Below, piece by piece: positions 4,322 through 46,806 of a DNA stretch of 51,445 nucleotides. The notes beneath the pieces are model-generated. The model saw nothing but the letters and a program-made list of their open reading frames with translations. It had not been told where the DNA came from and did no database searches. This stretch comes from Clostridia bacterium (GTDB lineage: Bacteria; Bacillota; Clostridia; Christensenellales; Borkfalkiaceae). The stretch lies in contig JAFZYZ010000027.1 in assembly GCA_017615975.1 (NCBI GenBank), positions 1 through 51,445 on the forward strand, in the 5' to 3' direction. How positions within the stretch are numbered: the first letter of the stretch is position 1; each line of letters starts with the position of its first letter. Position numbers and translations under genes: made by a program.

Positions 4322-4333
4322 TACGGAGACACT

Positions 4334-5254: not shown

Positions 5255-5268
5255 GGAGGAAATAAAGT

Positions 5269-20108: not shown

Positions 20109-20186
<78 letters not shown>

Positions 20187-25733: not shown

Positions 25734-25940
25734 ATGGCTATAAGTTATAACAAATTATGGAAACTTTTAATTGATAAAGGCATGACGAGAACTCAGTTGC
25801 AAAAGGCGGCGGAGATGTCTTCTACTACCTTGGCGAAGCTTGGCAAAAACGAAACCGTCTCTATGGACGTGATGCTAAGGATATGTAAAGTGTTGGACTG
25901 TGGCTTTGAAGATATAATTGATGTCACTAAGGAGAACTAG
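25734..25940 (+). CDS. small XRE/Cro-type HTH regulator (68 aa)
   Basis: MTRTQLQKAAEMSSTTLAKLGKNETVSMDVMLRICKVLDC is the typical short HTH_26-like layout. GAGGTG SD. Confidence 0.75.
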   Translation: MAISYNKLWKLLIDKGMTRTQLQKAAEMSSTTLAKLGKNETVSMDVMLRICKVLDCGFEDIIDVTKEN

Positions 25941-25941
25941 C

Positions 25942-26334
25942 ATGCAAGAAGTATATGATTTTTTGAAAAAGTGTGGGACTTATTATTTGGCGACGGTTGA
26001 CGGCGACAAACCGAAAGTCAGACCGTTCGGCACGGTAGATATCTTTGAAGATAGACTTTATATCCAGACGGGTAAAGTCAAGCCGACTAGCAAGCAGATT
26101 CATGCTAACCCGAACGTAGAGATTTGTGCGTTTGATGGAAATAAATGGTTAAGGCTTTCGGGCAAACTTGTTTCAGATGATAGACGAGAAGCAAAAAAGC
26201 ATATGCTTGACAATTATCCGATGCTTCGCAATATGTATAACGAAGACGACGGCAATACGGAAGTTTTTTATTTCAAAAACGCCACGGCAACTTTCTCGTC
26301 TTTCACCGAACCGCCGAAAAAAATTAAATTTTAA
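25942..26334 (+). CDS. pyridoxamine-5'-phosphate-oxidase-like FMN-binding split-barrel protein
   Basis: ATG 25942 has an AAGGAGA SD. YLATVDGDKPKVRPFG..LYIQTGKVK..NPNVEICAF pattern. Confidence 0.55.
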   Translation: MQEVYDFLKKCGTYYLATVDGDKPKVRPFGTVDIFEDRLYIQTGKVKPTSKQIHANPNVEICAFDGNKWLRLSGKLVSDDRREAKKHMLDNYPMLRNMYNEDDGNTEVFYFKNATATFSSFTEPPKKIKF

Positions 26335-29286: not shown

Positions 29287-29287
29287 A

Positions 29288-30112
29288 ATGGATAATTCTG
29301 ATTACAGGGTAAAATTAAAACTTGATTTTGCAGAAGAGGAAAAAGTAAAAGATTTTCTTGCAAAGGCTTATTGTGCTTTTTCTGAATCTATACAAATTGA
29401 TAATGAGATATCAAGTGAAACATTTAATAATTTTTGTTTCAGTGCAGGAGTTAAGGCAGACTTAGTTTACTATAATGAATATGTGAATTCACCATTGATT
29501 TTTAAATTTTTACAAAAGCATACAGATTCACTTGTGGATTTTATATACTACTTTTCAATACTTGTTAATTCATGTAAGTATAAAAGTGCTGAACAAAATA
29601 GTTGGATAAAGGCATTTAATTATTGGGCAAGTTTGGCTTGTTTACAGTTTGACTTTATTGAAGATGAAAAAAAGTTTTTTATATTTCCTAAAGGTGCGAA
29701 GGAGTTAGATGATAAATTGATTTCCGAGCCGTTGGAGTGGTTAAAAGATTATAAATTATCACATAAAGCATTTATTAAAGCACTAAAAGATTACTCTGAA
29801 GTAGATGAAAACACGGCAAGTCAGGTTGCCGACAATTTAAGAAAAGCGTTAGAAACTTTCTTTCAAGAATTTTTTGAGACAAGTCAGTCTTTGGAAAACT
29901 GTAAGAGCCTTTATGGTAAATTTATGAAAGATAAAGGGATTTCGACCGATATTTCTAATAACTTTGAAACTCTTTTGCAATTATATACGAACTACAATAA
30001 CAATAACGCAAAGCATCATGACAAGGCAGAAATAAAGGCGTTAGAATATATTTTATATCAAACAGGCGCAATTATAAGACTATTGATTACTTTAAAACAG
30101 GAGAACAAATAA
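29288..30112 (+). CDS. 274-aa predicted all-helical protein of unknown function, translationally coupled between the helicase-nuclease and the methyltransferase
   Basis: ATG 29288 lies 1 nt after the upstream stop and has a GGAGAG SD. Its stop lies 1 nt before the next ATG. I recognise no catalytic motif. Confidence 0.7.
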   Translation: MDNSDYRVKLKLDFAEEEKVKDFLAKAYCAFSESIQIDNEISSETFNNFCFSAGVKADLVYYNEYVNSPLIFKFLQKHTDSLVDFIYYFSILVNSCKYKSAEQNSWIKAFNYWASLACLQFDFIEDEKKFFIFPKGAKELDDKLISEPLEWLKDYKLSHKAFIKALKDYSEVDENTASQVADNLRKALETFFQEFFETSQSLENCKSLYGKFMKDKGISTDISNNFETLLQLYTNYNNNNAKHHDKAEIKALEYILYQTGAIIRLLITLKQENK

Positions 30113-30113
30113 A

Positions 30114-32036: not shown

Positions 32037-35000
32037 ATGTATCAAGCGATAAAGCGGTATTGCGAGAATGATAAACAAAATGGTCTTTTCCTTTTGGATA
32101 TGCCAACGGGATTTGGAAAGACTTATAATGTTATTAAGTACATTTATGATGCTTCTATAAATGAGGCTAATAAGGATAAAAAATATTTTTTTATTACTAC
32201 TTTAAAAAAGAACCTTCCGACAGTTGAATTAGAACAGTGGTTTAAAGAAAACGGTAAAGCTGATCAATTTAAAGAAAAGTTTTTGTTTATTGACTCCAAT
32301 GTAGATTGTGCGATCGAACATTTAACGGAAAAAGTTAAAGATTTAATTCCTAATGACATTAAAAAAACAGATGAATACAAAGAATTTGAAAAAGGTATTA
32401 GATTTCTCCAATCACAAGATACAGACACGAAACTGAAGGCTTTTGTTAGTAGTATTCAGGACACATTAAGAACAAAGACAGAACCCGCTTTTAGAAGACT
32501 GCTACAGACTATGTTAGCAAAAGAGTATCCATCAGTAGATAAAAGGTTGTACGCAATTAAAACCGAAAAACGATGGCAATGGCTTGGCGAATTATACCCT
32601 GCAGTTTTTACGAAGGATCGTCAAATAATTTTTATGAGCGTGGAAAAATTTTTGTCTCGTAATTCAACTATTGTTGAAACTTCTTATGTGTTTTATAATT
32701 CGAGTATTATTGAAAATGCAGTTATTTTTATAGATGAATTTGACGCAACAAAGGAGACGATTCTTAATAATATTATACAAAATGGTTTGCGTGACAGAAT
32801 AGATTATGTTGATTTATTCCTTTCTATATACGGTCCATTGCAAACCGCTTCTTTTCCAGCAGCATTAACAATACCATCGAAGAAAAGAAAAGCAAGCGAT
32901 TATGCAAATCAATCGCTTCAAGCTGTAATTGATGGGATAAAAGAGAAAGCGGAAATAATTTATGATACATACTCTCTTCAATTTAATCACCGCACAAATG
33001 TAGATGAAAATAATTCACGTAATTTTTTGTTTCAAGATCATCAGTTTCATTCTGTGCTAAACGGCAACAATAAATATGTCACAACAACGAGTATCAAAAC
33101 TGATCGTATAAATGCCATAAAGTTTACTGAAGAAAGACCAGAACTGGAATCAAACAATATTCAAATATTGCTGGGTAAACTAAGAGGTTTTATTTCGTGG
33201 TTTCTTGGCGGGGTAAATATTCTTGCAATTAACTATATGCAACGAAAGTTGGAGGAAAAGAGAGATGGAGATGAAGATTTTACCTTTGAATATGCAATTC
33301 GCTCGGTCTTATCACTTTTCCGTTTAAATCAGATATATATAGACTTTTTAACATCACAAATTCTTATTTCAAGCCATAAGGCAAAAGGTGATATTCAAAG
33401 TTCAGAATTTGATAAAACATTTTATGAGAACGGGTTCAGGTATTATGCTTTTGAAGATGATGCTGGACACGATATGCAATCTCGTATGATGATGTGTTCT
33501 TTTCAAAATACACCAGAAAAGATTTTATTAAGATTTTGTGAGAAAGCGAAAGTAATCGGTATTTCTGCAACAGCAACTATAGATACCGTTGTTGGCAATT
33601 TTGATCTCGATTATCTCAAAGCAAAAATGCAATCTTCTTACGTTGAAATGTCAGATGAAGATTATAATCGTTTGAGTCGCAATTTTGAGGAGACTCAGTG
33701 CGGATATAATCAAGTCAATATTCATACGGAACTTCTTGGTGATACTGACTACAATTCATATGGGATCAAGTCGTGGCAGCGTGTTTTTGATGACAGAGAA
33801 ATTGCTGAAGAAGCATATAATATTGTCCAACGAAAACGTAGTGATAACGAAAATAATTATAATTCAGAGCGTTATCTTAGAATAACAGAAGCATATAAGC
33901 AGTTCTTGTGCCATGCGGATATTAAATCGTTTCTTTGTGTTCTAACTAAACATCCACAATTTAAAGATAGTACTCTTGATTTGAATACAATTTATGATCT
34001 TTTTGAATTAACAGCAAAAGTGTTTCAACCTGGCTTTGATGCACGCAAATCGGTAGTGAAACTTGATGGGGATGAATTTGATCAAAAGAAGAATGATGTA
34101 ACACGAAGGTTAGAAAGAGGTGAAAAACTCTTTGTAATTTCAGTATACCAGACGATTGGTGCCGGGCAAAATCTCCAATATAAAGCACCTGCGACAATAA
34201 TAAAATCGCTTATAAAGGTCAATGACCGTGATAGTGGCGAAAAGGATTACGATGCTATTTATCTTGACAAACCAACAAATCTTTTAGTGAATTTTATTCA
34301 AGGACAGTCAGTCGAAGAAGATCAGTTTGCAAAAGCGTTATTTCAATACGAATTTTTACAAGAAAATGCGGAAATATCGATTGATGAAAGTGTTAAATCT
34401 ATTAAAAACGCATTTCGTGCATTCATGAGTAATGGGTCAGCAAAAGGAGAATATGTTTCCAATCAGCGTGATTGTAAAAGCATTAGAATGTTGGCAACTC
34501 GGTATATTATTCAGGCAATAGGAAGGATTTGTAGGACAAATTTAAAGCAAAAGGATATATATGTTTTTGCAGACAGTCGAATAGCAGAAAGTTTAGATGT
34601 CAGTGTTGTTGAAAAAAGAATTGTTAATCGTGAGTTTTCCGCGTTATTGGGTCGAATTTCACAGGTTCATTACAAATCACCAGAGGAGCGTTCGCTTGAA
34701 GCAAAAGCGGCTTTAACTTCAATTCGGGTAAACAAAGATATACGCAACATGATAGAAGAAGATTGGAACGATAAGAGTATAGAGAAATGGCAAGTACTTC
34801 GTGATCTCGTTTTAAGATATCCAACGCTATCGCACGAAGAAGTGTCTCGTAATTTTGTGGCATATAATTATTATGTAGAGATGCCTAAAAAGGCAAATCG
34901 TATTTATTACAATCAAGAAGAAGATTTTAATAAGATATCGGTTGGTTTTGTAAAGGCTTCGGAATATAAGTATACTTTATCGGCGGAAGGGGCTAAGCTT

Positions 35001-35519
35001 ATTCAATTAATGTCGTTTCCTGATATTAAACAGTATTTTAAATCTGCTGGATATGCTACCGAATTTGCCGAAAATGACTTTATTATGTCCCCACCACTTT
35101 GGAATAACATATACAAGGGAGCTTTGGGGGAAGTTGTGGGAAGGTATTTGTTTAACAAGATTCTGTCTGTCAAATTGGATGACATTACCGATCCTGAAAT
35201 ATTTGAGCTTTTTGACTTTAAGGTGAGATCATCTTCTGTATTTTTAGACTTTAAGGACTGGCAAGAATCAACTGATTCTAACTGGGACAAGCAGATAAGA
35301 AAGATTACAGAAAAAGCAAACAAATGCGGCTGTAAATGTGCCATTATTGCTAACATATTGACGGCGAATAGCAGATACAGTGTTAGGGAAAGCACTGAAA
35401 ACGGTGTCCATATATTAATTGTGCCTGCACTGCTTTTAGAGTCTACTCATGATGTTTACACGGATGCATGGAAAAAAATTAAGGAGTGCATTGAGAAATA
35501 TGGCGATTCAGACCAATAA
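32037..35519 (+). CDS. Rad3/DinG-like SF2 helicase with a C-terminal PD-(D/E)xK-like nuclease segment, 1160 aa (DdmD-like architecture)
   Basis: Motif I PTGFGKT (32103-32123). Motif II FIDEFDAT (32727-32750). GISATAT and YQTIGAGQNL. Motif VI QAIGRICR (34512-34535). C-terminal ELFDF..VFLDFKDW (D1060, D1071-x-K1073; nt ~35202-35255). The helicase call is solid; the nuclease and DdmD-like calls are inference. Confidence 0.6.
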   Translation: MYQAIKRYCENDKQNGLFLLDMPTGFGKTYNVIKYIYDASINEANKDKKYFFITTLKKNLPTVELEQWFKENGKADQFKEKFLFIDSNVDCAIEHLTEKVKDLIPNDIKKTDEYKEFEKGIRFLQSQDTDTKLKAFVSSIQDTLRTKTEPAFRRLLQTMLAKEYPSVDKRLYAIKTEKRWQWLGELYPAVFTKDRQIIFMSVEKFLSRNSTIVETSYVFYNSSIIENAVIFIDEFDATKETILNNIIQNGLRDRIDYVDLFLSIYGPLQTASFPAALTIPSKKRKASDYANQSLQAVIDGIKEKAEIIYDTYSLQFNHRTNVDENNSRNFLFQDHQFHSVLNGNNKYVTTTSIKTDRINAIKFTEERPELESNNIQILLGKLRGFISWFLGGVNILAINYMQRKLEEKRDGDEDFTFEYAIRSVLSLFRLNQIYIDFLTSQILISSHKAKGDIQSSEFDKTFYENGFRYYAFEDDAGHDMQSRMMMCSFQNTPEKILLRFCEKAKVIGISATATIDTVVGNFDLDYLKAKMQSSYVEMSDEDYNRLSRNFEETQCGYNQVNIHTELLGDTDYNSYGIKSWQRVFDDREIAEEAYNIVQRKRSDNENNYNSERYLRITEAYKQFLCHADIKSFLCVLTKHPQFKDSTLDLNTIYDLFELTAKVFQPGFDARKSVVKLDGDEFDQKKNDVTRRLERGEKLFVISVYQTIGAGQNLQYKAPATIIKSLIKVNDRDSGEKDYDAIYLDKPTNLLVNFIQGQSVEEDQFAKALFQYEFLQENAEISIDESVKSIKNAFRAFMSNGSAKGEYVSNQRDCKSIRMLATRYIIQAIGRICRTNLKQKDIYVFADSRIAESLDVSVVEKRIVNREFSALLGRISQVHYKSPEERSLEAKAALTSIRVNKDIRNMIEEDWNDKSIEKWQVLRDLVLRYPTLSHEEVSRNFVAYNYYVEMPKKANRIYYNQEEDFNKISVGFVKASEYKYTLSAEGAKLIQLMSFPDIKQYFKSAGYATEFAENDFIMSPPLWNNIYKGALGEVVGRYLFNKILSVKLDDITDPEIFELFDFKVRSSSVFLDFKDWQESTDSNWDKQIRKITEKANKCGCKCAIIANILTANSRYSVRESTENGVHILIVPALLLESTHDVYTDAWKKIKECIEKYGDSDQ

Positions 35520-37317
35520 AATCGAAGCTGAAATAAATTACGTAGCACTTGATAATAAATATGATTTTTTTGTTTTAACAACTACAGAGAAATACATTAA
35601 AGGCGGAGCAATGATATTAGATGCGCCGTCATCAATACTTCGTGTACAAGCAATACATTTTACCAACGGAAAATGTTTTTTCGTTATGGTGTTTAAATCT
35701 GCAGATAATAAAAACAAATTAAAGGAATTAATACAATCATATAGCGAAGGTAGATATTTAACTATCAATCAATTAAACAGTAGCGATCTTGAAGAAAAAG
35801 ATTTGCTCCAGTTACTTATCAATGGATTGTCTAATTCACGCAATCCATTACTTGGGTTTAGCAATTTAACAGGACATTTATATTGTTTCCATCCATCATG
35901 GCTTAAACATAAAAGGACAGGGTCTCAAGAAGAAATAGTTAAAGTGCCCTGCATTGAATTTCATGTAGTAGACGAAAATAAATTATTGATAGATGTAAGG
36001 ACTTTCAGTTCAGTAAAACTTAGGAATAAGATCACCTTTCGCAAAAAGAAATTTGAAGAATATCCTAAGTATAGTTTCGCAACAAATAATACATTAAAGC
36101 GAATAACTGAATCGTGCGACGATGCGAGTTATATTTTAAGGCAAACAGATGGTGCAAAGACAGAAATACCGTTTTTGGACATTCTAAATACCGAAAAATT
36201 TATGCAAAGCAAAATGGGTGTTTTATCTGCCGTAATTGAGCAATTCAATAAGGTATATGTGGGGGAGGCGTCTATTAAATTTAGTAGCATAGACGAGTAT
36301 AAACGAATAGACCATAAGAAAAAAGCAGAGGAAGAAAATAAATCGAGAGTTGTTTCCATTTTAAAACAGAACAAAATACGAATTGTTGATCAAATAGGGA
36401 ATGGGTATTCAGAAGAGTTCTGTAAAACAATGTCGAGATTATTGGAAAGAAAATATGGAATTAAACCCTCTTTAGGGACCCGCTTATCAAAAAATGGACT
36501 TAATATAGTTTTAATACACAATGCAGCCTATTATATTGATGTGGAAGATCCGCATGATGTTGTTAAGTCAAATTATGCTATTCAACATGTTACATTAGAA
36601 GATTTTTCTAATAGTGCTGAATTTGCGATTGCTACTGTTGTTAATGAGTTAATTATTAAAGATGATTTGAGATCTGGAAAAATATCATTATTTGATTGGA
36701 AACGACTTTCATTTCAAGGTGATTTTATATTCGGGACTGAGGTTGTTGAAAACGAAATAAAAAAATATTTGTTTATGCGTATTCATCCAGATGGCTCTTT
36801 TGTAATACATAAATGTGAATTTGATTTATTTTCTGCAAATGAATATATGAAATATGCAAAAATATATGAAGATGCTAAAGTTGCTTCTGAAACGGTTCGA
36901 GGCATAATAAGCGATGATAAAGGAAATATAAATATTATTAAAGATACGGATTGGTTTACAATTCCAAATATTAACTGTATTAAATCTGAGTTAGAGAAAG
37001 GTAATACAAAGATTCGGGGCAAAGAGGCAAGAATGCGTTTTCTCGATGCAATATTAGATATAAAATGGTTTCAAAACGGGGAAGATGTTTTCTATTTTGC
37101 AAATGACATTGGGGACGGAATGCGCACATTAGTGCAACGTGCTGCGAATATAAGAAAAATAGTTGCACATGAGAACTCGGAATTGTTTTTTGATAAAATC
37201 TCCCCATTGTTTGATGTGACTTTTGTCCGCAATGGTCAGTTAACAGTTGTTCCGTTCCCGTTCAAGTATTTACGAGAAGATTTTGATTATATGAAAAAAG
37301 TTAATGAAGATGACTAA
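35500..37317 (+). CDS. 605-aa protein with a MID-PIWI-like C-terminal half, predicted catalytically inactive (pAgo-like / DdmE- or PIWI-RE-like candidate)
   Basis: ATG 35500 overlaps the upstream gene by 20 nt, with AAGGAG 13 nt upstream. NIVLIHNAAYYIDVEDPHDVVKSNYAIQHVTLEDF fits the MID-type K..Q pattern. FIFGTEVV sits at the GxDV position, IISDDKG at the RDG position, and VVPFPFKYLRE matches PxPxxYA[HD]. The CDS is well supported; the fold assignment is by eye only. Confidence 0.45.
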   Translation: MAIQTNKIEAEINYVALDNKYDFFVLTTTEKYIKGGAMILDAPSSILRVQAIHFTNGKCFFVMVFKSADNKNKLKELIQSYSEGRYLTINQLNSSDLEEKDLLQLLINGLSNSRNPLLGFSNLTGHLYCFHPSWLKHKRTGSQEEIVKVPCIEFHVVDENKLLIDVRTFSSVKLRNKITFRKKKFEEYPKYSFATNNTLKRITESCDDASYILRQTDGAKTEIPFLDILNTEKFMQSKMGVLSAVIEQFNKVYVGEASIKFSSIDEYKRIDHKKKAEEENKSRVVSILKQNKIRIVDQIGNGYSEEFCKTMSRLLERKYGIKPSLGTRLSKNGLNIVLIHNAAYYIDVEDPHDVVKSNYAIQHVTLEDFSNSAEFAIATVVNELIIKDDLRSGKISLFDWKRLSFQGDFIFGTEVVENEIKKYLFMRIHPDGSFVIHKCEFDLFSANEYMKYAKIYEDAKVASETVRGIISDDKGNINIIKDTDWFTIPNINCIKSELEKGNTKIRGKEARMRFLDAILDIKWFQNGEDVFYFANDIGDGMRTLVQRAANIRKIVAHENSELFFDKISPLFDVTFVRNGQLTVVPFPFKYLREDFDYMKKVNEDD

Positions 37318-37436: not shown

Positions 37437-38954
37437 ATGGATATTTTAGAAAAAATAAGTGAATTATATGGGAAAATTTATAAATACAATTCTTTACTTT
37501 TAAAAAAATCAGAAGATTTATTGTTAGAAAATAAGTACGATTTTGATGATATATTTGATTTTTATATAACTTCACATGCTTTAGGATATTTGAAAAATCT
37601 TTATTTCGGGAATATACAAAGTGCAGGGTTTTATCTTAATATCAGATGTATTATAGAAGGACTTGCTATAAAACAGTTAAACGCTCAAGGTAAGATAAGC
37701 ATTGAGATGAAACAACTACTGCAAAAGCAAGTTTTTTTAATAGAATATAAGAACTATTTTCAATTCAGTGATATATCTGATAAAATTTTATTACCAGAAA
37801 AATTACAATATGATTATGATAAAGCTGTCGAATATTATAAGGAAATACTACACAATCGATTTGATAATAAGACGATATTAGAAATATGCAAATCGAAAAT
37901 CCCATTTTTATGCAATCCAAAGATTAGTTTTCATAAAATAATTGAAAACACTTTAGGCGAAAAAGCAACTTCCATATATGGGATATATAGTTCAATGATA
38001 CATTCGTCGAATAATATTCCTTATACAATGGAAGAGCTTAATAATTTTGCTATCGCCATATTCCCATATATCGTTGAAAACTTTGATGTATTACCGAGTG
38101 GCACTTCGCTAAAGGATGAACTATATTTGTTAGCGTCTCAAATAGGGAATTCATTAACCCAGTGTTTTACGGATATAGGCGATATACTAATAAATGTTGC
38201 AAATGTTTTTGAAAAAAAATTTAATAATAATTATGTCACAAATACTTTTAGAAAATTATCATATGTTCTGTCAGATTTTGCAATAGAAAAAAACATTGGT
38301 TTAACAGAACAAATAAAAAGTAAGTGGAAAATCCTTTTAGAACATTTTGCCGTCTTTAATTTTCAATATTTTAATGCTAAACATGACGAAAATATATATA
38401 AATTAATGGACAAGCATAGAATACTTCAAGAAAAAAGGAATCTATCAATAAAATTTGTTTTAGATGACGAATATGAACTTTACTGTAAAATTTATTCAAC
38501 TAATCACTGTGAAAAGGCCACATTTGATAAAGCATTTTTACAGCCTCTAGGTTATCTAATTAACGAGAAAGGGATTGTGCCTAAAATCGTAGATTTAATA
38601 AAAGATTTTTCAAAACTTTTTGGGGCTGATAAGTTAGGGGAAATAACTGCCGGAAAATCTATGATTTTAGATTACGTTGAAAGTCAAATGATATCTCATG
38701 CTAACGGATATATGTGGTTTGCAAATAATGGCGCTTGGGGAGATGTAAACAGCGTTCTAATCAATACTTTGTTAAGCATAAAGTTGATTCTAGAAAAAAT
38801 GCAAGCTGTTTTTAAGGTTCATAGAGAAATAGAAGGGACAAAAGAATATAAAACAATAATAAATCTCTTAAGGAATAGTCTAAAAAAGCTGGATGTTAAT
38901 TTGAAAAATTTGCTTGAAATATTAAGTTTGCCAATGATTAAAAAGCCTTATTAG
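37437..38954 (+). CDS. 505-aa predicted all-helical protein of unknown function
   Basis: Long ORF in the same orientation as its neighbours, very AT-rich. Two internally similar halves each carry an R/K-x-hydrophobic..E segment and a later S-x-I/M-x-H motif (IYSSMIHSSNN; ESQMISHANGYMW). I can assign no family. Confidence 0.6.
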   Translation: MDILEKISELYGKIYKYNSLLLKKSEDLLLENKYDFDDIFDFYITSHALGYLKNLYFGNIQSAGFYLNIRCIIEGLAIKQLNAQGKISIEMKQLLQKQVFLIEYKNYFQFSDISDKILLPEKLQYDYDKAVEYYKEILHNRFDNKTILEICKSKIPFLCNPKISFHKIIENTLGEKATSIYGIYSSMIHSSNNIPYTMEELNNFAIAIFPYIVENFDVLPSGTSLKDELYLLASQIGNSLTQCFTDIGDILINVANVFEKKFNNNYVTNTFRKLSYVLSDFAIEKNIGLTEQIKSKWKILLEHFAVFNFQYFNAKHDENIYKLMDKHRILQEKRNLSIKFVLDDEYELYCKIYSTNHCEKATFDKAFLQPLGYLINEKGIVPKIVDLIKDFSKLFGADKLGEITAGKSMILDYVESQMISHANGYMWFANNGAWGDVNSVLINTLLSIKLILEKMQAVFKVHREIEGTKEYKTIINLLRNSLKKLDVNLKNLLEILSLPMIKKPY

Positions 38955-38992: not shown

Positions 38993-41900
38993 ATGAAAAT
39001 AATTAAAAGTACGCAATTGAAGAAATGGTTTTATTATAATAGCAGAAAAACTCAGTCTATTTTTCCAGAATTAATACGAAAATTAATTCGTATGTCAATC
39101 AATAGAACTTCAAATATTCATTTACCATCAGGGGATTCTATATATACTACAGGATGGGATGCTATTGTCAAACATAATGAAGTAAAGCATGAGTTTGTGC
39201 CACTAGGATCATCCTTTTGGGAATTGGGGACAAATAACAATAGTGTAGCAAAAATAGAGGCTGATTATAAGAAAAGAAAAGCTCAATCTACTATTTACGA
39301 CAAATCTCAATATACATATGTTGCAGTAACATCAAGAATTTTAGACTCTGGGAAAAAGGAGGAAATATGCGAACAAATAAAGAAAGATAAAAATTTTAAA
39401 GATGCAATAATTATTGATGCAAATGATCTAGAATGTTGGCTGGAAGGCCATATTGATATTACAATTTGGCTGTTAAACAAATACGAAGAAAGTATTAAAG
39501 ATTATGAAATTAATACTGTCGAAAATATTTGGCAAGAGATATCGCAATCAACAAATCCAAAACTAACTGAAACAATTTTTACGACAGGAAATCAAGCGCA
39601 GGCTACTCGGTTTATTGATGACATTACAAATAATCTTGTAACAGGGAACAATTATTATGCGGTTTGTTCTCCTTTTTATGGGCAAGAGCATGCTTTATTT
39701 TTTGCTGTGGCAAGTATTATAAGTTCAAATAATGAAGCACTTATTGAAAGGAGTATTGTCGTAGAAAGTCAAGCTGGATTAGATATAATAAATGCATTTT
39801 GCGAAGATAAAATAATAATATTAAATTTTAATTGTTTCGATAAAAGATTAAGCAAAAACACAACAAACAAGTATATTTTTCTAGAAAATATAACGGCGGG
39901 AATTCAATTAGAATTAGTTTCACAGCAAGATTTTACAAAAGCTATAGAAACATTGGGATATTCAGCAGGCGAGGCATATAGGATTTCATATACAGTAGAA
40001 AATAATGCGGTTGCATTAAGAAGGTTGTTGGCACAAGTGCCAACATTAAAAAAACCACGGTGGGCAAGAGAGAAGAATAAAAATGACTTAATACCGTTAA
40101 TGATTTTGGGTGAAATAAATATGAATAAATTATCCGATATTGAGATGTTAAAAGCAATAGTTGGCGATAATTATGATCAGTATTTAGAAACCTTAAATTT
40201 TTGGACGGAAATCGGGTATGCACCTTTATATAAATATGAAGATGTTTATAGAATTTGTAGCAAAAAAGAATGTTTTGAAAATATTCAAGTTGATCACTTT
40301 TCAGTAAAAATCAAAAAAATAGAAGACAAGATAAAAGAATTGTTTTGCAATAAAGACATAGATAATAATCTATTTAATGAGAGAACTATAAGAAATATAA
40401 TAGAAGCGTTCATTATCATGGCGCAACAATCAGAAAGGAATCAACTTCATTTTGATTTTTACGTTGAAGAAATATTTAAAAATGTTAGTGGCAACGAAGT
40501 GCTTTATGAAAGAATAAAAACATTTTTGTCTCTTTTAGCAGAATTATCACCTCAAAAATTTATTAAATATATTGAAGGTGAAATTGCAAACGATAATCCT
40601 GTTTTTAATGCTTTGGTAAATAAAGAAAGTAGTGTTAATAGCTGCGATTTTGTAAACTATATATCTTATGGATTAGATAGATCTTTAAGGTTAAAGGAAA
40701 CCGTTGTAAAATCATTAAAAGTGTTGTTGCAACTATATTATCATGTCAATGAAAATCTGCTTCTATTAGAAAGAATTCAGGAAAGTTTTTCTCCAATTAC
40801 GGTTGGACTATTTCCCATTTCTTTACATAGAAAAACCGAACTTTTATTTAATTATATTAAAGATCAAGATTCGAATAAAACAAAAAAGATAATGGAAGGC
40901 TTATCATCTGGCGGTAAGCTGAATATGATGATTGCAAGCGCACGGTCTTATCGGCAATTTGATGAACAAGAAAAAATTCATTATACCTATCAAGACTATT
41001 TTGACCTGCAAAGCCAGGCGATAAAATGGTTAATTAATAATTCATCTCAGTCAGATTTAGCAAGTTTATTAGAGAAAGCTTTAAATAATATATATTATCG
41101 TCCAAAAAATTTGTTGTGTGAAGATTTAGAACAAATAAAACAAAAATGTTTAACTGACAACGTAAGCGATGAAGTAAAGGCTGAATTAAATGTTAAAGTT
41201 TTGTCAAAAATTGAGGATTTAAAAAAGTTTGATAGAAAGTATAAAAACGATTATTTGCCAATATTGCAAGAGTTTTTAGATGCTATTGCCCCAACAGATA
41301 CCTATATTAGTTATAGATATATGTTCACGCAAGATAATTTCCCATTAGCTAATCCCATAAAATTTGAAAGTAATGCAAATTGGTATGAACGGGACAATGA
41401 AAGTAGAGAAATATTACGCAAAAATGCCATTGAAGTTTTATTGAAAGAATATGGTGAAAATATTTTAGAAAGAATTATTAATGATGCCACAAAAAAATCA
41501 TATAGTATTTGGAAACTTCTCTTTTGTTATTCTAAAGACAAGGAAAAAGATATTATACAAATGATAAAACTTAAAGAACAGGTTGGGCTTTCTTTTTATT
41601 TATCTAGAATAGAAAATGCTGTTTTAGTTAAATATATAGACATCGCCGAAAATGAAGAGGATGCATTCATTTTTTCTTGTTTGCCATTTAATATCCAAAC
41701 TATTAATTTTGTAAGTGGTAAAACTAATGAAAAATTATATTGGGAAGGAAGGAGATTATATTTTAATGATGAATTATCTTTTGAGCAAGTATTCGATAAA
41801 ATGTTGAAGTTTTATCCAACAGGATTATTGGATTATTTTGCTTATAGGAGAGATTATTCATACGAGGAAGGAATTTTATTATTAAACGCATTGGCAACAT

Positions 41901-42655
41901 ATTTACAAGAAGAGAATAACGAAATAAGAAGACTGGATTTCTATTCACTAAAAGAAATAATAAAGAAAATGGACAATAAGTATTATACTAAAGAATTGTC
42001 CAAATGTGAATTTGACTTATTAGAGTATATATTAACGGATTTGGAAGATTATCCTTTAGGAATTAAAAAATATTTTTGGGATAATCCAAAGGAATTAGGA
42101 GGATTGCTGTCTGAATTGTATAATAAAAGAGATAAATTACAACAAGGAAGTTTAGGTGCTAAAATTTTTTTTGAAGCACACATATCACTAGGGGAAAAAT
42201 CATTTATTCCTAAAGAGTATATGTTGCAATATAAGGAAAAGCTTTATAGTTGGGCAATGGAGATAATTAATGTAAACTCTATAGATAATAAAAATTTAAA
42301 AATATTTTTGAAATTAGCTGTAATAAATACTTTAGCCAAATGCCCTAAAGAAATTAATGCTAAAATTTGGCCGATAAAAGAAGTAGCGGATATTTTAGAG
42401 GAATTGTCAAAAGAAGATTTTGATTCACCCGAAAGAGTCTCAAGCAATTTCTACTGTTCTTTTTTTAATACGAGAGGTATGAGAACAATAGGAAATGGAG
42501 AAGAGGAGTTTGTGTTAAATGAAGAGTATTTAGCATATAAAGACTACTATGATGTTTCCCATCCTGTGGTTGCCACAGCACTGGGATATATAGCAAATGG
42601 ATATAAGGAAGAAGGGGAAATGGACAAACGGTGGTATTTATTTGGGGAATATTAA
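38993..42655 (+). CDS. 1220-aa protein of unknown function; the N-terminal ~150 aa may be a restriction-endonuclease-like domain, the remainder looks helical-repeat-like
   Basis: AAAGGA SD 7 nt upstream. N-terminal FPELIRKLI..TTGWDAIV..GSSFWELGTNNNSVAKIEADYKKRK..YVAVTSR..IIDANDLECWLE (nt ~39125-39277), with D56/E77/K86 as candidate D..E..K residues. No P-loop is seen anywhere. Confidence 0.6.
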   Translation: MKIIKSTQLKKWFYYNSRKTQSIFPELIRKLIRMSINRTSNIHLPSGDSIYTTGWDAIVKHNEVKHEFVPLGSSFWELGTNNNSVAKIEADYKKRKAQSTIYDKSQYTYVAVTSRILDSGKKEEICEQIKKDKNFKDAIIIDANDLECWLEGHIDITIWLLNKYEESIKDYEINTVENIWQEISQSTNPKLTETIFTTGNQAQATRFIDDITNNLVTGNNYYAVCSPFYGQEHALFFAVASIISSNNEALIERSIVVESQAGLDIINAFCEDKIIILNFNCFDKRLSKNTTNKYIFLENITAGIQLELVSQQDFTKAIETLGYSAGEAYRISYTVENNAVALRRLLAQVPTLKKPRWAREKNKNDLIPLMILGEINMNKLSDIEMLKAIVGDNYDQYLETLNFWTEIGYAPLYKYEDVYRICSKKECFENIQVDHFSVKIKKIEDKIKELFCNKDIDNNLFNERTIRNIIEAFIIMAQQSERNQLHFDFYVEEIFKNVSGNEVLYERIKTFLSLLAELSPQKFIKYIEGEIANDNPVFNALVNKESSVNSCDFVNYISYGLDRSLRLKETVVKSLKVLLQLYYHVNENLLLLERIQESFSPITVGLFPISLHRKTELLFNYIKDQDSNKTKKIMEGLSSGGKLNMMIASARSYRQFDEQEKIHYTYQDYFDLQSQAIKWLINNSSQSDLASLLEKALNNIYYRPKNLLCEDLEQIKQKCLTDNVSDEVKAELNVKVLSKIEDLKKFDRKYKNDYLPILQEFLDAIAPTDTYISYRYMFTQDNFPLANPIKFESNANWYERDNESREILRKNAIEVLLKEYGENILERIINDATKKSYSIWKLLFCYSKDKEKDIIQMIKLKEQVGLSFYLSRIENAVLVKYIDIAENEEDAFIFSCLPFNIQTINFVSGKTNEKLYWEGRRLYFNDELSFEQVFDKMLKFYPTGLLDYFAYRRDYSYEEGILLLNALATYLQEENNEIRRLDFYSLKEIIKKMDNKYYTKELSKCEFDLLEYILTDLEDYPLGIKKYFWDNPKELGGLLSELYNKRDKLQQGSLGAKIFFEAHISLGEKSFIPKEYMLQYKEKLYSWAMEIINVNSIDNKNLKIFLKLAVINTLAKCPKEINAKIWPIKEVADILEELSKEDFDSPERVSSNFYCSFFNTRGMRTIGNGEEEFVLNEEYLAYKDYYDVSHPVVATALGYIANGYKEEGEMDKRWYLFGEY

Positions 42656-42684: not shown

Positions 42685-42714
42685 AAAGTCGGTAGATAAC
42701 TATCGACTTTTTTA
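42685..42714 (+). terminator. rho-independent terminator ending the seven-gene block
   Basis: Stem aaagtcggtag / ctatcgacttt (one G-T pair) with loop ataa, followed by a T-run. Confidence 0.75.
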
Positions 42715-43076
42715 ATTTATTCCAGGCTAGATATAAGCGATTATCATACAGTAAACTGTAAAACTAATTTGATACAATAAAGAAAACAAATAAATATTAT
42801 AAACATTTTATTAAAAGCACTTGATTTTTTTGAAAAATTGTTTTAGAATATAATTGCATTTGGAAGAATGCGAGATTAGGTCGGCAGCGAAATGCTGGTT
42901 GTAAAATGACGGGATCTACTTTGCAGGGATGCAAGTTCCGCAGAGAAGATCAACTCAATTTATAATTAATATTTGACTGATTTGACCTTAGCGTACGAGC
43001 CCGTAGTGGGCTTATTATGTAGAGGTCTATTTTTATTTCTTCCTGTGCAAAAAATATTTTACAGGAGGATTTTTTT

Positions 43077-44132
43077 ATGGCAATCGATATTGAAAATATC
43101 GAACACACAATAGGTTATACTTTTGAAAATAAGGATCTATTGAAACAGGCGTTCGTCAGAAGGAGTTATTCAGAAGAATATGGCGGGCAGAACAATGAGG
43201 TATTGGAGTTTATCGGAGATAAAGCACTGGACCTTGCAGTTGTCAGATTGATGATGTTGCGGTTTGGTGAAATTACCGAAGATAAGGAATTGAGCGAGTT
43301 TAAGTTAACTAGTCCTAAGTATTTTAAGACAAAGCTCGGCGAGGGAAAATTTACCGACATAAAGAAACTGCTCGTTCAGAAAAAAACGTTATCAAAATGC
43401 ATTGATAGATTAGGATTTCATAAGCAATTGATAATGGGAAAAGGTGATATAGAACAAGGCGTAGAAAACCAAGATTCAGTAAAAGAAGACTTGTTTGAGG
43501 CAATAATAGGAGCGATTGCTCTGGATTGCGATTTTAATATGAGACAAATTAGTTATGTGGTTGACGCCATGCTTGATGTCTTGGCTTTTTTTAAAAATGA
43601 GGATTTTAATGCTAATTATGATGGCAACTATGTGTCGTGGCTACAAGAGTGGACACAATCGCAAGGGTATGGTTTACCAAATTATACGTATACCTTAAAT
43701 ACTGATGATAATTCATTTACTTGTCGTTTAACAATAACGGGGAAAGATGGTTTTAGACATTTTGAATTGGGTGATGGGTTTAGTCATGCAAAAGCAAGAG
43801 CTGTAGTTGCATATAAAACATTTATATACTTACGCGAACAAGGTATAATAAAAAATAGATTTGAAGATGCAGTTGGTAAACCGTATTTTGAAGAATCTAT
43901 CCGACAATTGAATGAATTATATCAAAAGAGATTAATAGCGAAGCCTGAATATTCTTTTAATGAAGAACATGATGAAAACGGTGATTCAATTTGGTTTTGT
44001 ACTTTAACAGTCGAAGGGTTTGAAAAGAAAGTAGAAGAAGGCTCTAATTCAAAAAAAGACGCTCAAAGGTTTGCTGCATATAATTTTCTTTGCTACATCA
44101 TGGGAATAGAGGAAGAATTAAAGGGAAATTAA
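43077..44132 (+). CDS. RNase III-family nuclease with two C-terminal dsRBD-like domains, 351 aa (accessory paralogue)
   Basis: Signature EVLEFIGD (43197-43220) and second catalytic motif EDLFEAIIGAIALD (from 43485), so all four acidic catalytic positions are present. Two alpha-beta3-alpha-like segments follow, ending in HAKARAVVAYKTFIYL and KKDAQRFAAYNFLCYI. AGGAGG SD. Confidence 0.75.
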   Translation: MAIDIENIEHTIGYTFENKDLLKQAFVRRSYSEEYGGQNNEVLEFIGDKALDLAVVRLMMLRFGEITEDKELSEFKLTSPKYFKTKLGEGKFTDIKKLLVQKKTLSKCIDRLGFHKQLIMGKGDIEQGVENQDSVKEDLFEAIIGAIALDCDFNMRQISYVVDAMLDVLAFFKNEDFNANYDGNYVSWLQEWTQSQGYGLPNYTYTLNTDDNSFTCRLTITGKDGFRHFELGDGFSHAKARAVVAYKTFIYLREQGIIKNRFEDAVGKPYFEESIRQLNELYQKRLIAKPEYSFNEEHDENGDSIWFCTLTVEGFEKKVEEGSNSKKDAQRFAAYNFLCYIMGIEEELKGN

Positions 44133-44187
44133 TAAATTATAATAAAAACAATGCTATCATAATGGAAAGTATTGACCTAGTCATAAA

Positions 44188-44217
44188 ATAGCGGTAGAGA
44201 ACCTATCGCTATTTTTT
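44188..44217 (+). terminator. rho-independent terminator after the RNase III-like gene
   Basis: Stem atagcggtag / ctatcgctat (one G-T pair) with loop agaac, followed by ttttt. Confidence 0.75.
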
Positions 44218-44341
44218 ATAGTTTATGGTAAAATATAAAGGTCAAAAGGAGGTGGGGCTATGATTGCGTAGGCGTCCACTATCGGCAAAGATAAGTGGAC
44301 GGGAAAATCAAAACAATTTAATAAAAACAGGAGGTATTTAT

Positions 44342-45835
44342 GTGAAAATAACGTATAAGGATTTTGTAGAAATCCAAAAGTTAAAGAAGCAAGGAATAAC
44401 GAGAAACGAGGCTGTCCTAAAAACCAAATACACGCAGTACGTAATATATAAATACTGGGATATGCCCGAAGACGTGTTCCTTAAAGAAAAAGACCAGACC
44501 AAGTCGGAATACAGCAAGTACCGAGACGTTATCGTCGAGATAATAAACGAGAACAGCACTCTTCCCGCAAACGTAATTCACGATAGGCTGAAAGAACGGG
44601 TCGGCGCGGAAAACCTTGCGTCTATGAATTCCTTTTATCGGTACTTAAAAAGCCTAAAGCAAAGGATGGGGCTATCCGACAAAAAGGTTTCAGTTCGCCA
44701 GATGGTAGAAGAAACTCCGATGGGTGAAGAAGCGCAGGTAGACTTCGGTCAATACCAAATGCCGAATATGTACGGTGGCGTAAACAGAGTATATTTCTTC
44801 TGTATGGTGCTGTCGTACAGTCGGATGAAATACGTGTACTTTCTATCAGAACCGTTCGACTCGCTGACGTTTGCCTATGCACACGAACTAGCTTTTAAGT
44901 ATTTCGACGGCAGGCCTAAAAGGATACTGTACGACCAAGACAGGACGATGGTAGTAAGCGAAAACTGCGGGAATATAATTTTCACTAAAGAGTTCGACGC
45001 TTACCGAAGAACGGCGGGGTTTGAAGCGATGGTTTGTAAACCTTACGACCCGGACAGCAAAGGTAAGGTAGAGAACGTCGTAAAGTTCGTAAAGCAAAAC
45101 TTCCTTGAAGGCAGAGAGTATTGCGGGATTGACGCGCTTAATAATCAATGCCTGGCGTGGCTGGACAGAACGGGGAACGGCAAGATACACCAAGCGACTA
45201 AAAAGACGCCGCGGGAGTTATTTGTTAAAGAACAGCCGAAACTTACAAAGCATCACCCCGTAGAAATCGACCTGAATAAAACGAGAGTGGCAAGGGTATC
45301 CGACCTATACTACGTGACCTACAAAAACAACAGATATTCCGTTCCGCCGAGTAAGTGCAAAATCGGGGACAGAGTAAAGTTGGAAGTCGAAGGCAATGCA
45401 CTCAATATTATCGACGTAGCGACCGACAAAAAGATAATTACTCACCGATTGCTGCAAGGGAAAGGCAAGGCAAACGTCGAAAGGGAGATGCCTATTGACA
45501 AGAACTACTTTAACAAAGCCAAAGAAAAGTACGAGTCAAGCAGCGTGGTAGTCAAGTTTATCGAAAGGATAGAGATGACAAAGCCACGGTACTTAAAAGA
45601 ACAGGCACGGCTGTTGCATAAAATAGAAAAGCAGTATTCAAAGGACGATATAATTTCCGCAATAGTGACTTGTTCGAGTGAAAATAGGTTTTGCTTTACC
45701 GAAGTGCTTTCGGAACTCTTGATTCAGGTAGGCGAAAGAAATCTTAAAGAGATAGCGCCGAAACGGACTGCGTCTAGGTATAAAAAACTCGCTAACTACA
45801 ATCTTTTGACGGAGGCTGACGATGGACTTATCTAG
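44342..45835 (+). CDS. istA: IS21-family transposase IstA
   Basis: GTG 44342 has an AGGAGG SD 8 nt upstream. N-terminal HTH. DDE core EEAQVDFG, LYDQDRTMV and PYDPDSKGKVEN. Confidence 0.85.
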   Translation: MKITYKDFVEIQKLKKQGITRNEAVLKTKYTQYVIYKYWDMPEDVFLKEKDQTKSEYSKYRDVIVEIINENSTLPANVIHDRLKERVGAENLASMNSFYRYLKSLKQRMGLSDKKVSVRQMVEETPMGEEAQVDFGQYQMPNMYGGVNRVYFFCMVLSYSRMKYVYFLSEPFDSLTFAYAHELAFKYFDGRPKRILYDQDRTMVVSENCGNIIFTKEFDAYRRTAGFEAMVCKPYDPDSKGKVENVVKFVKQNFLEGREYCGIDALNNQCLAWLDRTGNGKIHQATKKTPRELFVKEQPKLTKHHPVEIDLNKTRVARVSDLYYVTYKNNRYSVPPSKCKIGDRVKLEVEGNALNIIDVATDKKIITHRLLQGKGKANVEREMPIDKNYFNKAKEKYESSSVVVKFIERIEMTKPRYLKEQARLLHKIEKQYSKDDIISAIVTCSSENRFCFTEVLSELLIQVGERNLKEIAPKRTASRYKKLANYNLLTEADDGLI

Positions 45836-46556
45836 AATAAAAGATTTGGCGAACAGGTTAAGTCTGACTAACCTTGCGAGAAGCCTTACGGAAATACAAG
45901 GCACGGAAAAAGAGTGGCGGTTTTTGGAAAAGGTGCTACGGACCGAACAGGAAATACGCGACGGCAACAAAGAACAGACGCTAATAAAAAGAGCCAAGTT
46001 CCCAGTTATAAAAACGATGGAAGAGTTTGAACTGGACGCACAGGAAAAACTGACCAAGTGGCACTTAACTAAACTATCGGAAACGAAATGGATAGAAGAC
46101 AGATACAACGTTCTTCTAATCGGTAGTGCGGGAACGGGTAAAACCCATCTAGCCGTTGCAATCGGGTTAAAGGCGATAGGCAATAACAAAAAGGTAGTGT
46201 ATACGACGGTAAACGAGTTGCTGTTTCTAATAAAGACACAGCAGGAAGTTAAGAAAAGCAAAATCAAGTTGGACTACATAGAAGACTGCGACGTGGTAAT
46301 AATAGACGAACTCGGTTATACGCCGTTAAGCCGAGAAGAGACGCTTACCCTTTACAAAAAGATAGACGGACTTAATAAAAGGAAATCCCTTATAATAGCC
46401 ACGAACAGAACTTTCGAAGGCTGGGGAGACATCTTTTACGATGAACAAACAGCCGAGACCTTACTTGACAGAGTCGTAGAGAACTGTCAGGTAATAACAC
46501 TTACAGGCGGTAGTTACCGACTGAGAACCCACAAAGGTATATTTGACGTTAACTAA
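45822..46556 (+). CDS. istB: IS21-family ATP-binding helper IstB
   Basis: 244 aa. Walker A GSAGTGKTHL and Walker B VVIIDELGY. Overlaps istA by 14 nt, with a GGAGG SD. Confidence 0.9.
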   Translation: MDLSRIKDLANRLSLTNLARSLTEIQGTEKEWRFLEKVLRTEQEIRDGNKEQTLIKRAKFPVIKTMEEFELDAQEKLTKWHLTKLSETKWIEDRYNVLLIGSAGTGKTHLAVAIGLKAIGNNKKVVYTTVNELLFLIKTQQEVKKSKIKLDYIEDCDVVIIDELGYTPLSREETLTLYKKIDGLNKRKSLIIATNRTFEGWGDIFYDEQTAETLLDRVVENCQVITLTGGSYRLRTHKGIFDVN

Positions 46557-46739
46557 CCCTTGAAGATTTAATTTGATTATAAATAAAATTTAATTTTGAT
46601 TATTCAGTTTTTTCGCTAGAAAGAACTTTTTATATATAAAAGATTTTTGATTTGGTGAGAAAGTGAGAACGCCTAAGGGGGTAGGGGGGGTAAAAACCCC
46701 GGTAAAACACCCCCCTAGCGGGGCCGCAAAACCGTGCGA

Positions 46740-46806
46740 GTTTTCGCAAAATCAAAAATCAAACGCGCAAAATCACGCAAGTTTTCGCAAAATCAAAAAT
46801 CAAACG
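46740..46806. repeat. two copies of a 26-bp direct repeat (gttttcgcaaaatcaaaaatcaaacg) with a related partial copy between them
   Basis: Copies at 46740-46765 and 46781-46806, with the spacer cgcaaaatcacgcaa repeating the cgcaaaatca core. G/C-rich hairpins lie at 46681-46730 just upstream. Confidence 0.9.

Follow-up and report, generated by a model that had tools for sequence, protein, structure and literature searches.

Why does a genome carry a long RNase III gene with what looks like a pair of domains that bind double-stranded RNA (dsRBDs) at the edge of a defense island, and does that gene work with the Argonaute-like gene nearby? The question is raised by positions 43077-44132 of a 51,445-nucleotide (nt) contig (JAFZYZ010000027.1, assembly GCA_017615975.1) from a Clostridia bacterium of the Borkfalkiaceae; we call this whole stretch of DNA the window. 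A preliminary description, made from the letters of the DNA, had proposed an accessory RNase III paralogue that might divide the labor with the Argonaute-like gene in the manner of Dicer and Argonaute or might be an independent nuclease or the cargo of a mobile element. That description missed the most distinctive feature of the locus, a conserved structured RNA that precedes the gene. We propose, with a probability of roughly 60%, that positions 42821-44215 are a self-contained mobile single-gene cassette and that its leader is the family's cis-regulatory operator, through which the enzyme would limit its own synthesis. The features of the cassette are as follows.

42821-42849, forward strand: promoter-like site, TTGATT (-35), a 17-nt spacer and TAGAAT (-10), from a consensus scan and a consensus match only
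42856-43076, forward strand: conserved structured 5' leader RNA of about 220 nt (folding, profile searches, covariation)
42862-42868, forward strand: 5' Shine-Dalgarno (SD)-like segment, GGAAGAA, or "anti-anti-SD," that can pair with the anti-SD as helix P0 (RNAduplex, single-sequence folds)
42879-42987, forward strand: P2, a long irregular hairpin of about 34 to 40 bp with a GNRA-type apical loop, UGCAAG (covariance model, RNAalifold, covariation)
42984-43038, forward strand: P3, a stem GACCU...AGGUC around a variable inner hairpin, followed by a U-rich tail at 43028-43038 (alignment, minimum free energy fold)
43039-43068, forward strand: P4, the anti-SD CUUCCUGU (43039-43046) with the SD region ACAGGAGG (43061-43068) (minimum free energy fold of the window)
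43077-44132, forward strand: coding sequence of a 351-amino-acid (aa) RNase III with tandem dsRBDs (open reading frame, Pfam, alignments, AlphaFold2, Foldseek)
43077-43592, forward strand: RNase III domain, residues 1-172 (AlphaFold2)
43266-43346, forward strand: family-specific insert, residues 64-90 (alignment)
43626-43838, forward strand: dsRBD1, residues 184-254 (AlphaFold2)
43887-44099, forward strand: dsRBD2, residues 271-341 (AlphaFold2)
44185-44215, forward strand: intrinsic terminator-like hairpin and T-run, the predicted end of a monocistronic unit (13-bp stem with 4 GC pairs, T-rich tail)

The leader folds with a minimum free energy (MFE) of -77.6 kcal/mol, a z score of -6.2 against 200 shuffles. 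We seeded an iterated nhmmer profile with the leader of the window, and it matched the upstream regions of RNase III homologues in 83 loci, most of the loci in this work being contigs of metagenome-assembled genomes (MAGs). When the whole loci were searched (1.34 Mb, both strands), 82 of 87 matches lay within 120 nt 5' of an RNase III start on the sense strand, and the remaining five were weak matches to this element on the antisense strand. The picture was the same in 37 loci that were added afterward and had not contributed to the profile: 25 of them carried the leader at the same position and nowhere else. A covariance model built on the P2 hairpin only (CM R1) recovered 5 of 10 loci that nhmmer had missed, which places the leader in about 87 of 92 loci, and in the window this model gave a single sense match at 42879-42991 (69.3 bits, E 5e-10). 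The leader is kept in sequence across proteins that are only about 37% identical and is a near-universal, specific companion of this RNase III family. In 56 loci, a TATAAT-like box lines up with the conserved leader's 5' edge; in the window, transcription is predicted to start at about 42856, and the terminator of the upstream gene lies at 42685-42710. Rfam 15 gave no match in the window at E<=1 and, at gathering thresholds, no family at the leader position in seven other loci, and we rejected a known RNA family for the leader on these grounds. The leader RNA is a new and strongly supported motif; the regulatory principle is already known.

We aligned 56 nonredundant leaders with MAFFT by sequence only. 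Default RNAalifold on this alignment gave 14 pairs, all with compensatory changes (for example, CG:28/UA:27 and GC:20/AU:15/UA:9), and RNAalifold with RIBOSUM gave 52 pairs in three elements, revealing the lower stem of P2 along with P3 and P4. Changes on both sides were seen at 48 of the 52 pairs. Paired cells amounted to 81.0% in the proposed structure, compared with 67.3% after column shuffling (a value that reached the proposed one in 0 of 500 shuffles) and 41 to 47% in slid registers, and the covariation score was 0.444, compared with 0.218 after shuffling and about 0.12 after sliding. The dominant element is P2, a long and nearly continuous A-U-rich helix. All 14 to 17 of its RNAalifold pairs have compensatory changes, its helices (1 to 5) are 74 to 95% paired, and its apical loop is GNRA in 40 of 56 leaders. 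We presume that P2 is where the RNase III binds or cuts.

The two elements that follow P2 are also conserved. The P3 stem proper (42984-43027) has the covarying variants GCCCG/CGGGC and GCCUG/CAGGC, its helices (6 to 8) all have two-sided changes and are 62 to 83% paired, and the stem is present in the MFE fold of the window. The 5' foot of P3, GACC, is common to the base of P2, so that the P2 and P3 pairings are alternatives. The U-tail is interrupted in many members, and a simple terminator scan did not call P3. P4 (helix 9) is 76% paired, has two-sided changes in 7 of 8 pairs, and is a significant duplex relative to shuffles in at least 45 of 54 leaders. P4 would sequester the ribosome-binding site, AGGAGG at 43063-43068, which lies 8 nt before the ATG. 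The same anti-SD can be taken by P0, whose SD-like segment reads GGAGA or AGAAGG in other leaders. The support for P0 consists of per-sequence duplex energies, not column covariation: the mean RNAduplex energy is -14.3 kcal/mol, z is below -1.64 in 52 of 56 leaders, and the closing helix appears in the single-sequence MFE folds of loci L001, L007, L015, L043, and L068. In 54 of 56 leaders, P0 and P4 draw on a common stretch of 4 nt or more within the anti-SD. Since these two pairings compete for one anti-SD, the leader appears to encode a conserved three-way switch (anti-anti-SD, anti-SD, and SD) around a long double-stranded RNA (dsRNA) hairpin.

The gene that follows the leader starts with ATG and encodes 351 aa. 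Pfam matched Ribonucleas_3_3 (PF14622) at residues 18-153 (E 6.7e-18, 65.5 bits, cutoff 35), Ribonuclease_3 (PF00636; E 3.3e-15, 57.2 bits, cutoff 27), and dsrm over two stretches (E 3.1e-11); with both nuclease domains above their curated cutoffs and the signature acidic residues in place, the protein belongs to the RNase III superfamily. The catalytic motifs are NNEVLEFIGD (residues 39-48) and KEDLFEAIIGA (residues 136-146). The acidic catalytic residues are conserved in alignments of 16 and of 115 homologues. No change was seen at E44, D48, or E141, and at least 90% of the 115 sequences keep E41 and D138; from the shared motifs, we take E41, E44, D48, D138, and E141 to correspond to E38, E41, D45, D114, and E117 of the Escherichia coli enzyme. 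An AlphaFold2 model built on the 115-sequence alignment (mean predicted local distance difference test score of 85.1, predicted template modeling score of 0.71) consists of an RNase III domain with a beta-hairpin insert (strands at residues 64-67 and 74-77) and two alpha-beta-beta-beta-alpha units at residues 184-254 and 271-341. The top Protein Data Bank (PDB) matches in Foldseek were the bacterial RNase III structures 7r97, 2ez6, and 1o0w (E of about 1e-10), and the C-terminal half matched the tandem dsRBDs of TRBP and Loqs-PB (5n8l, 7zpk_C, and 8dg5_K). Set against the RNase III of Campylobacter jejuni, the protein has about 20 extra residues in the insert (query residues 65-86 against chain position 85), and in the homologue alignment it is a 27-residue segment (residues 64-90) conserved across the family. 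The intact catalytic signature, the two dsRBDs, the lengthened insert, and the gene's own SD and terminator, all of which the preliminary description had read from the sequence, are thus borne out. The model and alignments indicate a class-1-type RNase III whose active site is intact and whose chain bears two dsRBDs and a conserved beta-hairpin insert.

The best sequence and fold matches of the window protein are bacterial class 1 RNase III enzymes (E. coli 7R97, Aquifex aeolicus 2EZ6, and C. jejuni 3N3W), which share with it a single RNase III domain, the full signature, and a dsRBD after the nuclease domain. They work by a homodimeric two-site mechanism, which is expected here as well, and the enzyme presumably acts as a homodimer with four dsRBDs per dimer; by its conserved catalytic residues, it would cleave dsRNA as they do, in an Mg2+-dependent reaction that leaves 2-nt 3' overhangs. 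It differs from them in having two dsRBDs and not one, in its insert of about 20 to 27 residues between the catalytic motifs, and in its length (351 aa versus about 220 to 250 aa). Among eukaryotic RNase III proteins, Arabidopsis RTL2 has the same order of domains as the window protein, an RNase III domain followed by two dsRBDs. Mucor R3B2 has this order too, with degenerate catalytic residues, and cuts single-stranded RNA (PMC8136814). The window protein differs from R3B2 in its invariant catalytic signature; its nearest sequence relatives are bacterial, and we found no specific relationship to R3B2 or RTL2, although no phylogeny was aimed at one. With Dicer and Drosha it has in common the RNase III catalytic fold and a dsRBD, together with a weak Pfam Dicer_dimer match over dsRBD1 (E 0.017, below the cutoff), but its chain holds a single RNase III domain where theirs holds two, it lacks the helicase, PAZ, and platform domains, and it shows no linkage to an Argonaute.

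The family to which this protein belongs does not look like housekeeping Rnc. The score against TIGR02191, the NCBIfam equivalog for housekeeping Rnc, was 126.1 bits, below the cutoff of 166.25. Rnc is expected to have one dsRBD in about 220 to 250 aa and to be near universal, single copy, and in a conserved context, whereas this family has two dsRBD folds in 351 aa, is patchy, is sometimes present in two copies, and has variable neighbors. A word-indexed protein search returned 2066 matches, the best 120 of which were nearly all 335 to 365 aa long with the same architecture. An exhaustive search of 1.84 billion representatives gave 232 clusters (counted at 50% identity) at E<=1e-30, nearly all with full-length alignments, and a scan of one genome per species (about 186k) gave 399 relatives. 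The best 80 of these 399 were nearly all from gut Bacillota (Clostridia, Christensenellaceae, Oscillospiraceae, Lachnospiraceae, Anaeroplasmataceae, and other Mollicutes), and a few were Bacteroidota bins on short contigs. Some genomes have two copies, which share a single contig in the case of L018 and L042 and a single MAG in the cases of L045/L048 and L035/L046. In the window, the coding sequence has a GC content of 34.5% and the island one of 31.6%, against about 45% in the flanks, in agreement with the island-like AT-rich composition described earlier. Taken together, the score below the equivalog cutoff, the variable contexts, the two-copy genomes, and the carriage on mobile elements point to a distinct accessory mobile family apart from housekeeping Rnc, as the preliminary description had suspected. 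The mobile tandem-dsRBD family is new; the enzyme class itself is already known. Literature searches on bacterial RNase III with Thg1, defense islands, or two dsRBDs found no description of this family or its RNA.

Two candidate identities for the protein were rejected. No model in PADLOC-DB v2 matched it at E<=0.01, which sets aside a known catalogued defense protein, and a phage origin was rejected given just 29 relatives among 2.9 million IMG/VR viral contigs, mostly at contig ends, and a PHROG match of unknown function. Viral loci L106-L118 form a shorter branch in which query residues 5-344 are matched in about 775 to 795 nt, and these proteins probably have a single dsRBD. A weak version of the leader is still present in L110, L111, L113, and L114. 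Because some members of this shorter branch retain it, the leader may predate the second dsRBD. At the other extreme, a few family members (P0071, P0077, P0083, and P0089; 537 to 545 aa) are fused C-terminally to PF07929 (plasmid pRiA4b ORF-3-like), a further sign of modular effector or partner attachment.

The surroundings of the homologues vary from locus to locus. After open reading frames had been called and clustered in 92 loci, no neighbor cluster was present in more than 9 of 90 loci, and there was no conserved chromosomal context. An identical protein is the last gene of an element with Mob_Pre, HpaII restriction-modification, and Vsr genes, and among the loci with this Mob_Pre element, homology stops inside different tRNA genes about 115 to 185 nt past the stop codon. 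Other homologues lie on an integrase/AbiEii/methylase element, after prophage tail genes (a typical moron position), beside GmrSD, HipA, and Lamassu genes, and beside an HEPN-SNF2 helicase. In locus L010, a metagenomic contig whose RNase III copy is 96% identical, window positions 42811-46806 correspond to L010 positions 1526-5499 at 93.7% identity, covering the promoter, leader, RNase III gene, and IS21 element only, and the flanks differ on both sides, with a tetratricopeptide repeat protein upstream and an ATP-binding cassette transporter gene beyond the insertion sequence (IS). The gap 5' of the RNase III gene is nearly always greater than 200 bp, and with its own terminator before the next gene, the IS21 istA gene starting at 44264, the unit in the window is monocistronic in organization. 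The two cassettes in L018 and L042 are about 42 kb apart on the same Anaeroplasmataceae contig (CAYYMS010000003.1), and each is preceded by a paralogue of a TRAM/tRNA-(uracil-5)-methyltransferase-like gene; this gene family also occurs directly upstream in L058 and about 5.4 kb upstream in L090.

The IS21 element itself was considered as the vehicle. Its right end has two 41-nt direct repeats in the window (46725-46806) and three in L010. A search on the left side of the RNase III gene for an inverted copy of the right-end repeat GCAAAATCAAAAATCAAACG gave no match with three or fewer mismatches and just a nonsignificant 9-mer, and IS21 was found in none of the other homologous loci besides the window and L010. 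Because there is no inverted end on the left and no IS21 elsewhere, we rejected the hypothesis that the gene is an IS21 passenger and treat the element as a neighbor and not a carrier, although it might have mobilized the adjacent cassette.

A coupled downstream gene on the same strand (within 60 bp, often overlapping) was present in 27 of 90 loci. The partners include DUF5677 proteins (5 loci), Thg1-like proteins (5 loci, plus L121/L122), a DEDDh/RNase T exonuclease, DUF6548, an esterase, a DUF4379 zinc-finger protein, ASCH-PIN, a DUF4238 protein that matched PADLOC DUF4238-Pers (3e-5), and a protein of 440 to 470 aa with a weak HEC-07 match. The Thg1-like 3'-5' nucleotidyltransferases are found in L007/L008 (11027-11746), L016 (2908-3594), L053, L054, and L121 (9025-9696), and the DEDDh (RNase T-like) 3'-5' exonucleases are found in L030 (1384-2094) and L123 (9058-9621). 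RNase III products have 5'-phosphate ends and 2-nt 3' overhangs. By analogy, the partners are suggestive: a Thg1-like enzyme would fill in RNase III-type ends, and a DEDDh enzyme would trim them.

These observations can be assembled into a mechanism for the cassette. As the RNA is made, the 5' SD-like segment would pair with the anti-SD (P0) and leave the ribosome-binding site free. P2 would be a substrate or binding site of the encoded enzyme, and once P2 is cut, the 5' segment would no longer be joined to the main part of the mRNA, so that the anti-SD would refold onto the SD (P4). The cut mRNA would also gain a 5'-monophosphate end and be open to decay. The outcome would be negative autoregulation that holds a potentially harmful dsRNase at a low level, and competing dsRNA would titrate the enzyme and let its synthesis rise. 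We infer that this enzyme cuts or binds P2, as well as which way the regulation runs and what biological role the cassette has. For the last, the genomic context and the variable coupled partners lead us to infer a part in dsRNA-directed conflict with phages, plasmids, and other mobile elements.

There is precedent for the regulatory part of this proposal. RNase III autoregulates by cutting its own mRNA in E. coli, where the site is a 5' stem-loop (rncO), and in Staphylococcus aureus and Streptomyces (PMC3386247). Like rncO, P2 forms a stable stem-loop ahead of the coding sequence in the untranslated 5' part of the enzyme's own mRNA (z = -6.2, covariation, CM), a long irregular helix where cleavage would lower expression, and the feedback would similarly match the enzyme to the dsRNA load (PMC3386247). 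The autoregulatory sites of S. aureus and Streptomyces lie in the coding sequence, unlike the 5' leader of the window. The leader also differs from rncO in being homologous to no Rfam family (E<=1 in the window; gathering thresholds in seven loci), and Rfam presumably holds a model of rncO. It is more elaborate than rncO, with its GNRA-capped hairpin of about 40 bp, a second stem, and the three-way SD switch. A further likeness is to yeast Rnt1p, a tetraloop-anchored RNase III that recognizes AGNN loops and has one dsRBD and an N-terminal domain. A conserved tetraloop likewise caps the enzyme-associated hairpin here (GNRA in the 40 leaders noted above), an analogy that suggests loop-anchored, ruler-type recognition by a dsRBD.

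Several points weigh against this proposal. The covariation of P0 and P4 is limited to flanking positions because the SD sequence constrains them. P2 might be the target not of the encoded enzyme but of the host's canonical RNase III, of another RNase, or of a trans factor, and the leader could work without cleavage, by protein binding or as an attenuator. The defense role is one of association only: some homologues adjoin ordinary housekeeping genes (a tRNA U5-methyltransferase, MatE), about 70% of the loci, including the window, have no coupled partner, and the PHROGs search of the RNase III protein returned just a family of unknown function.

Of the other explanations, the one that survives best is that the cassette is a module like the type III toxin-antitoxin (TA) systems, acting in abortive infection. 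The leader would then serve mainly as a small RNA in its own right, made in abundance and ending in the U-tail of P3, and would neutralize the RNase by binding the four dsRBDs of the dimer; when infection shuts off transcription, the RNA would decay and the nuclease would destroy cellular or phage RNA. The cassette resembles ToxIN, CptIN, and TenpIN in having a structured RNA directly 5' of an endoribonuclease gene, in its residence in defense islands and on mobile elements, and perhaps in the P3 stem and U-rich tail, which may be a terminator-like element between RNA and gene like the one that sets the RNA:toxin ratio in type III systems. P2 is also conserved in sequence as well as structure, which suggests specific recognition. 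However, the leader has no tandem repeats of the kind seen in ToxI-type antitoxins (no direct repeats were found within 42842-43076), the nuclease is of another superfamily, the U-tail is often interrupted and went uncalled in the terminator scan, and the conserved three-way SD switch suggests that what is controlled is the translation of a contiguous mRNA. We consider a TA-like module unlikely.

A second possibility is that the leader senses something else (a small molecule as a riboswitch, a trans-acting RNA or protein, or temperature) and that RNase III is simply the regulated output. An aptamer-sized structured domain followed by an SD-sequestering expression platform with alternative pairings would suit such a sensor, and the lack of an Rfam match leaves room for a new class. 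P2, however, has no multihelix junction or conserved internal-loop pocket typical of ligand aptamers, and the leader is tied exclusively to RNase III genes, its long helix being what RNase III enzymes recognize; we find this explanation quite improbable. We are equally doubtful that the gene serves its carrier elements and not host defense, for instance, by processing the antisense-RNA/target duplexes that govern the copy number of plasmids or elements, TA loci, or lysogeny. The gene is often the terminal cargo of integrative or mobilizable elements and prophages, and it travels with a copy of IS21 in the window and L010, but the neighboring element types differ completely between loci, the cassette also sits beside ordinary chromosomal genes, and the viral contigs yielded few relatives.

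The idea that the protein is the organism's housekeeping rnc in unusual form has the intact catalytic site in its favor, but with the sub-cutoff TIGR02191 score, the position in a low-GC island next to an IS element, and a distribution that is patchy (399 in about 186k species), multicopy in some genomes, and nonsyntenic, it is very unlikely. A Dicer-like partner making guides or sensing dsRNA for the neighboring DdmE and DdmD, the partnership raised at the outset, is hardly credible. In its favor, the two genes share a strand and one AT-rich island, with 5.8 kb between them, and L050 has a DdmD-like gene 1.4 kb downstream of its RNase III homologue. Against it, no DdmE homologue occurs within 10 kb in any of 91 other loci (tblastn and phmmer with every island protein), and the DdmD-like gene of L050 is the single one found and is followed by no DdmE. 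In the window, a promoter and a terminator of its own serve the RNase III gene, and two other genes and a terminator stand between it and DdmE. DdmE itself is reported to act on plasmid DNA with DNA guides (bioRxiv 10.1101/2024.05.10.593530). There is no recurrent co-occurrence of DdmD plus DdmE across the 91 loci that would make the enzyme an accessory component of DdmDE. What L010, with its different upstream neighbor, has in common with the window stops at the promoter, leader, RNase III gene, and IS21 element, so the cassette does not depend on the DdmDE genes. The fallback of the preliminary description, an independent nuclease or mobile-element cargo, fits the data.

The low-GC island in which the cassette lies extends from about 25 kb to about 44 kb of the window, with the RNase III unit at its right-hand edge, followed by IS21 (istA/istB). 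The genes on either side are ordinary for a chromosome: those to the left encode TilS, tRNA-Met, a TetR regulator, an aldo-keto reductase, and an iron-containing alcohol dehydrogenase, and to the right is one for a GTP-dependent phosphoenolpyruvate carboxykinase. The tRNA-Met gene (20109-20186, forward strand), next to tilS and about 5 kb left of the drop in GC, is a possible integration landmark of the island; no integrase was found in the window. At the left edge is a PNPOx-like protein of 138 aa (25918-26334, forward strand), homologues of which, about 62% identical, lie within 1 to 2 kb of the RNase III homologue in L043 (171-566, reverse strand) and L053 (12438-12833, reverse strand). Next, a restriction-modification-like cluster (26416-31964, forward strand) combines a ResIII-type helicase of 956 aa with a PDC-S32 candidate (9e-24) and a type III-like N6/N4 DNA methyltransferase.

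The Argonaute-like gene of the preliminary description is at 35449-37317 and encodes 622 aa; it has a weak match to DdmE (6.1e-9) over the C-terminal 90 or so residues, and its end lies 5.76 kb upstream of the RNase III start, as had been described. It is overlapped by a gene for a DdmD-like helicase-nuclease of 1160 aa (PADLOC DdmD, 1.3e-43), and the two (32037-37317, forward strand) are probably a divergent DdmDE-type plasmid-defense pair. The two genes between this pair and the RNase III unit encode proteins of 505 aa (u505; 37437-38954, forward strand) and 1220 aa (u1220; 38993-42655, forward strand). u1220 matched phrog_18693, of unknown function, over residues 1-844 (6.4e-30) and had no Pfam or PADLOC family and no PDB sequence relative; it starts 38 bp past u505, and the two may form an operon. 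u505 had no Pfam, PADLOC, or PDB sequence relative. Its homologues (34 to 43% identical, E 1e-60 to 1e-96) lie directly 3' of RNase III, at 157 to 226 bp, in three unrelated loci (L017, 1559-3160; L069, 3442-4953; and L072, 3617-5035), and u505 is the one recurrent link between the island of the window and other RNase III loci. It could be a recurrent partner or a mere coresident of the same islands.

A wider reading of the cassette, which we put forward tentatively and think fairly unlikely in its full form, is that it is the core of a so far undescribed bacterial dsRNA-surveillance immune module and that its leader represents a new class of protein-responsive regulatory RNA. The leader hairpin would be a built-in decoy as well as an operator, keeping free enzyme low until foreign dsRNA, for example, from convergent transcription of phages or plasmids or from RNA-phage replication, titrates it and so relieves the repression of its synthesis. 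The tandem-dsRBD RNase III would then dice the dsRNA, and an interchangeable downstream effector, present in about a third of the loci, would act on the products. Prokaryotes would have in such a module an Argonaute-independent counterpart of antiviral sensing by Dicer.

Few RNA enzymes have been studied as closely as RNase III, yet its bacterial form is taught as a housekeeping enzyme of one nuclease domain and one dsRBD. Here, we describe what appears to be a coherent, mobile, accessory tandem-dsRBD family that travels as a cassette with its own conserved RNA operator, one absent from Rfam. If the leader is cut by its enzyme, the cassette would be a compact, portable, and tractable case of RNase-mediated feedback coupled to an SD switch and a ready-made dsRNA-responsive expression device. 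The coupled partners (Thg1-like, DEDDh, DUF4238, and DUF5677 proteins) are direct handles on the question of defense. If the family does act against phages or plasmids, it would add a dsRNA-recognizing branch to bacterial immunity and would bear on the bacterial roots of Dicer-type enzymes.

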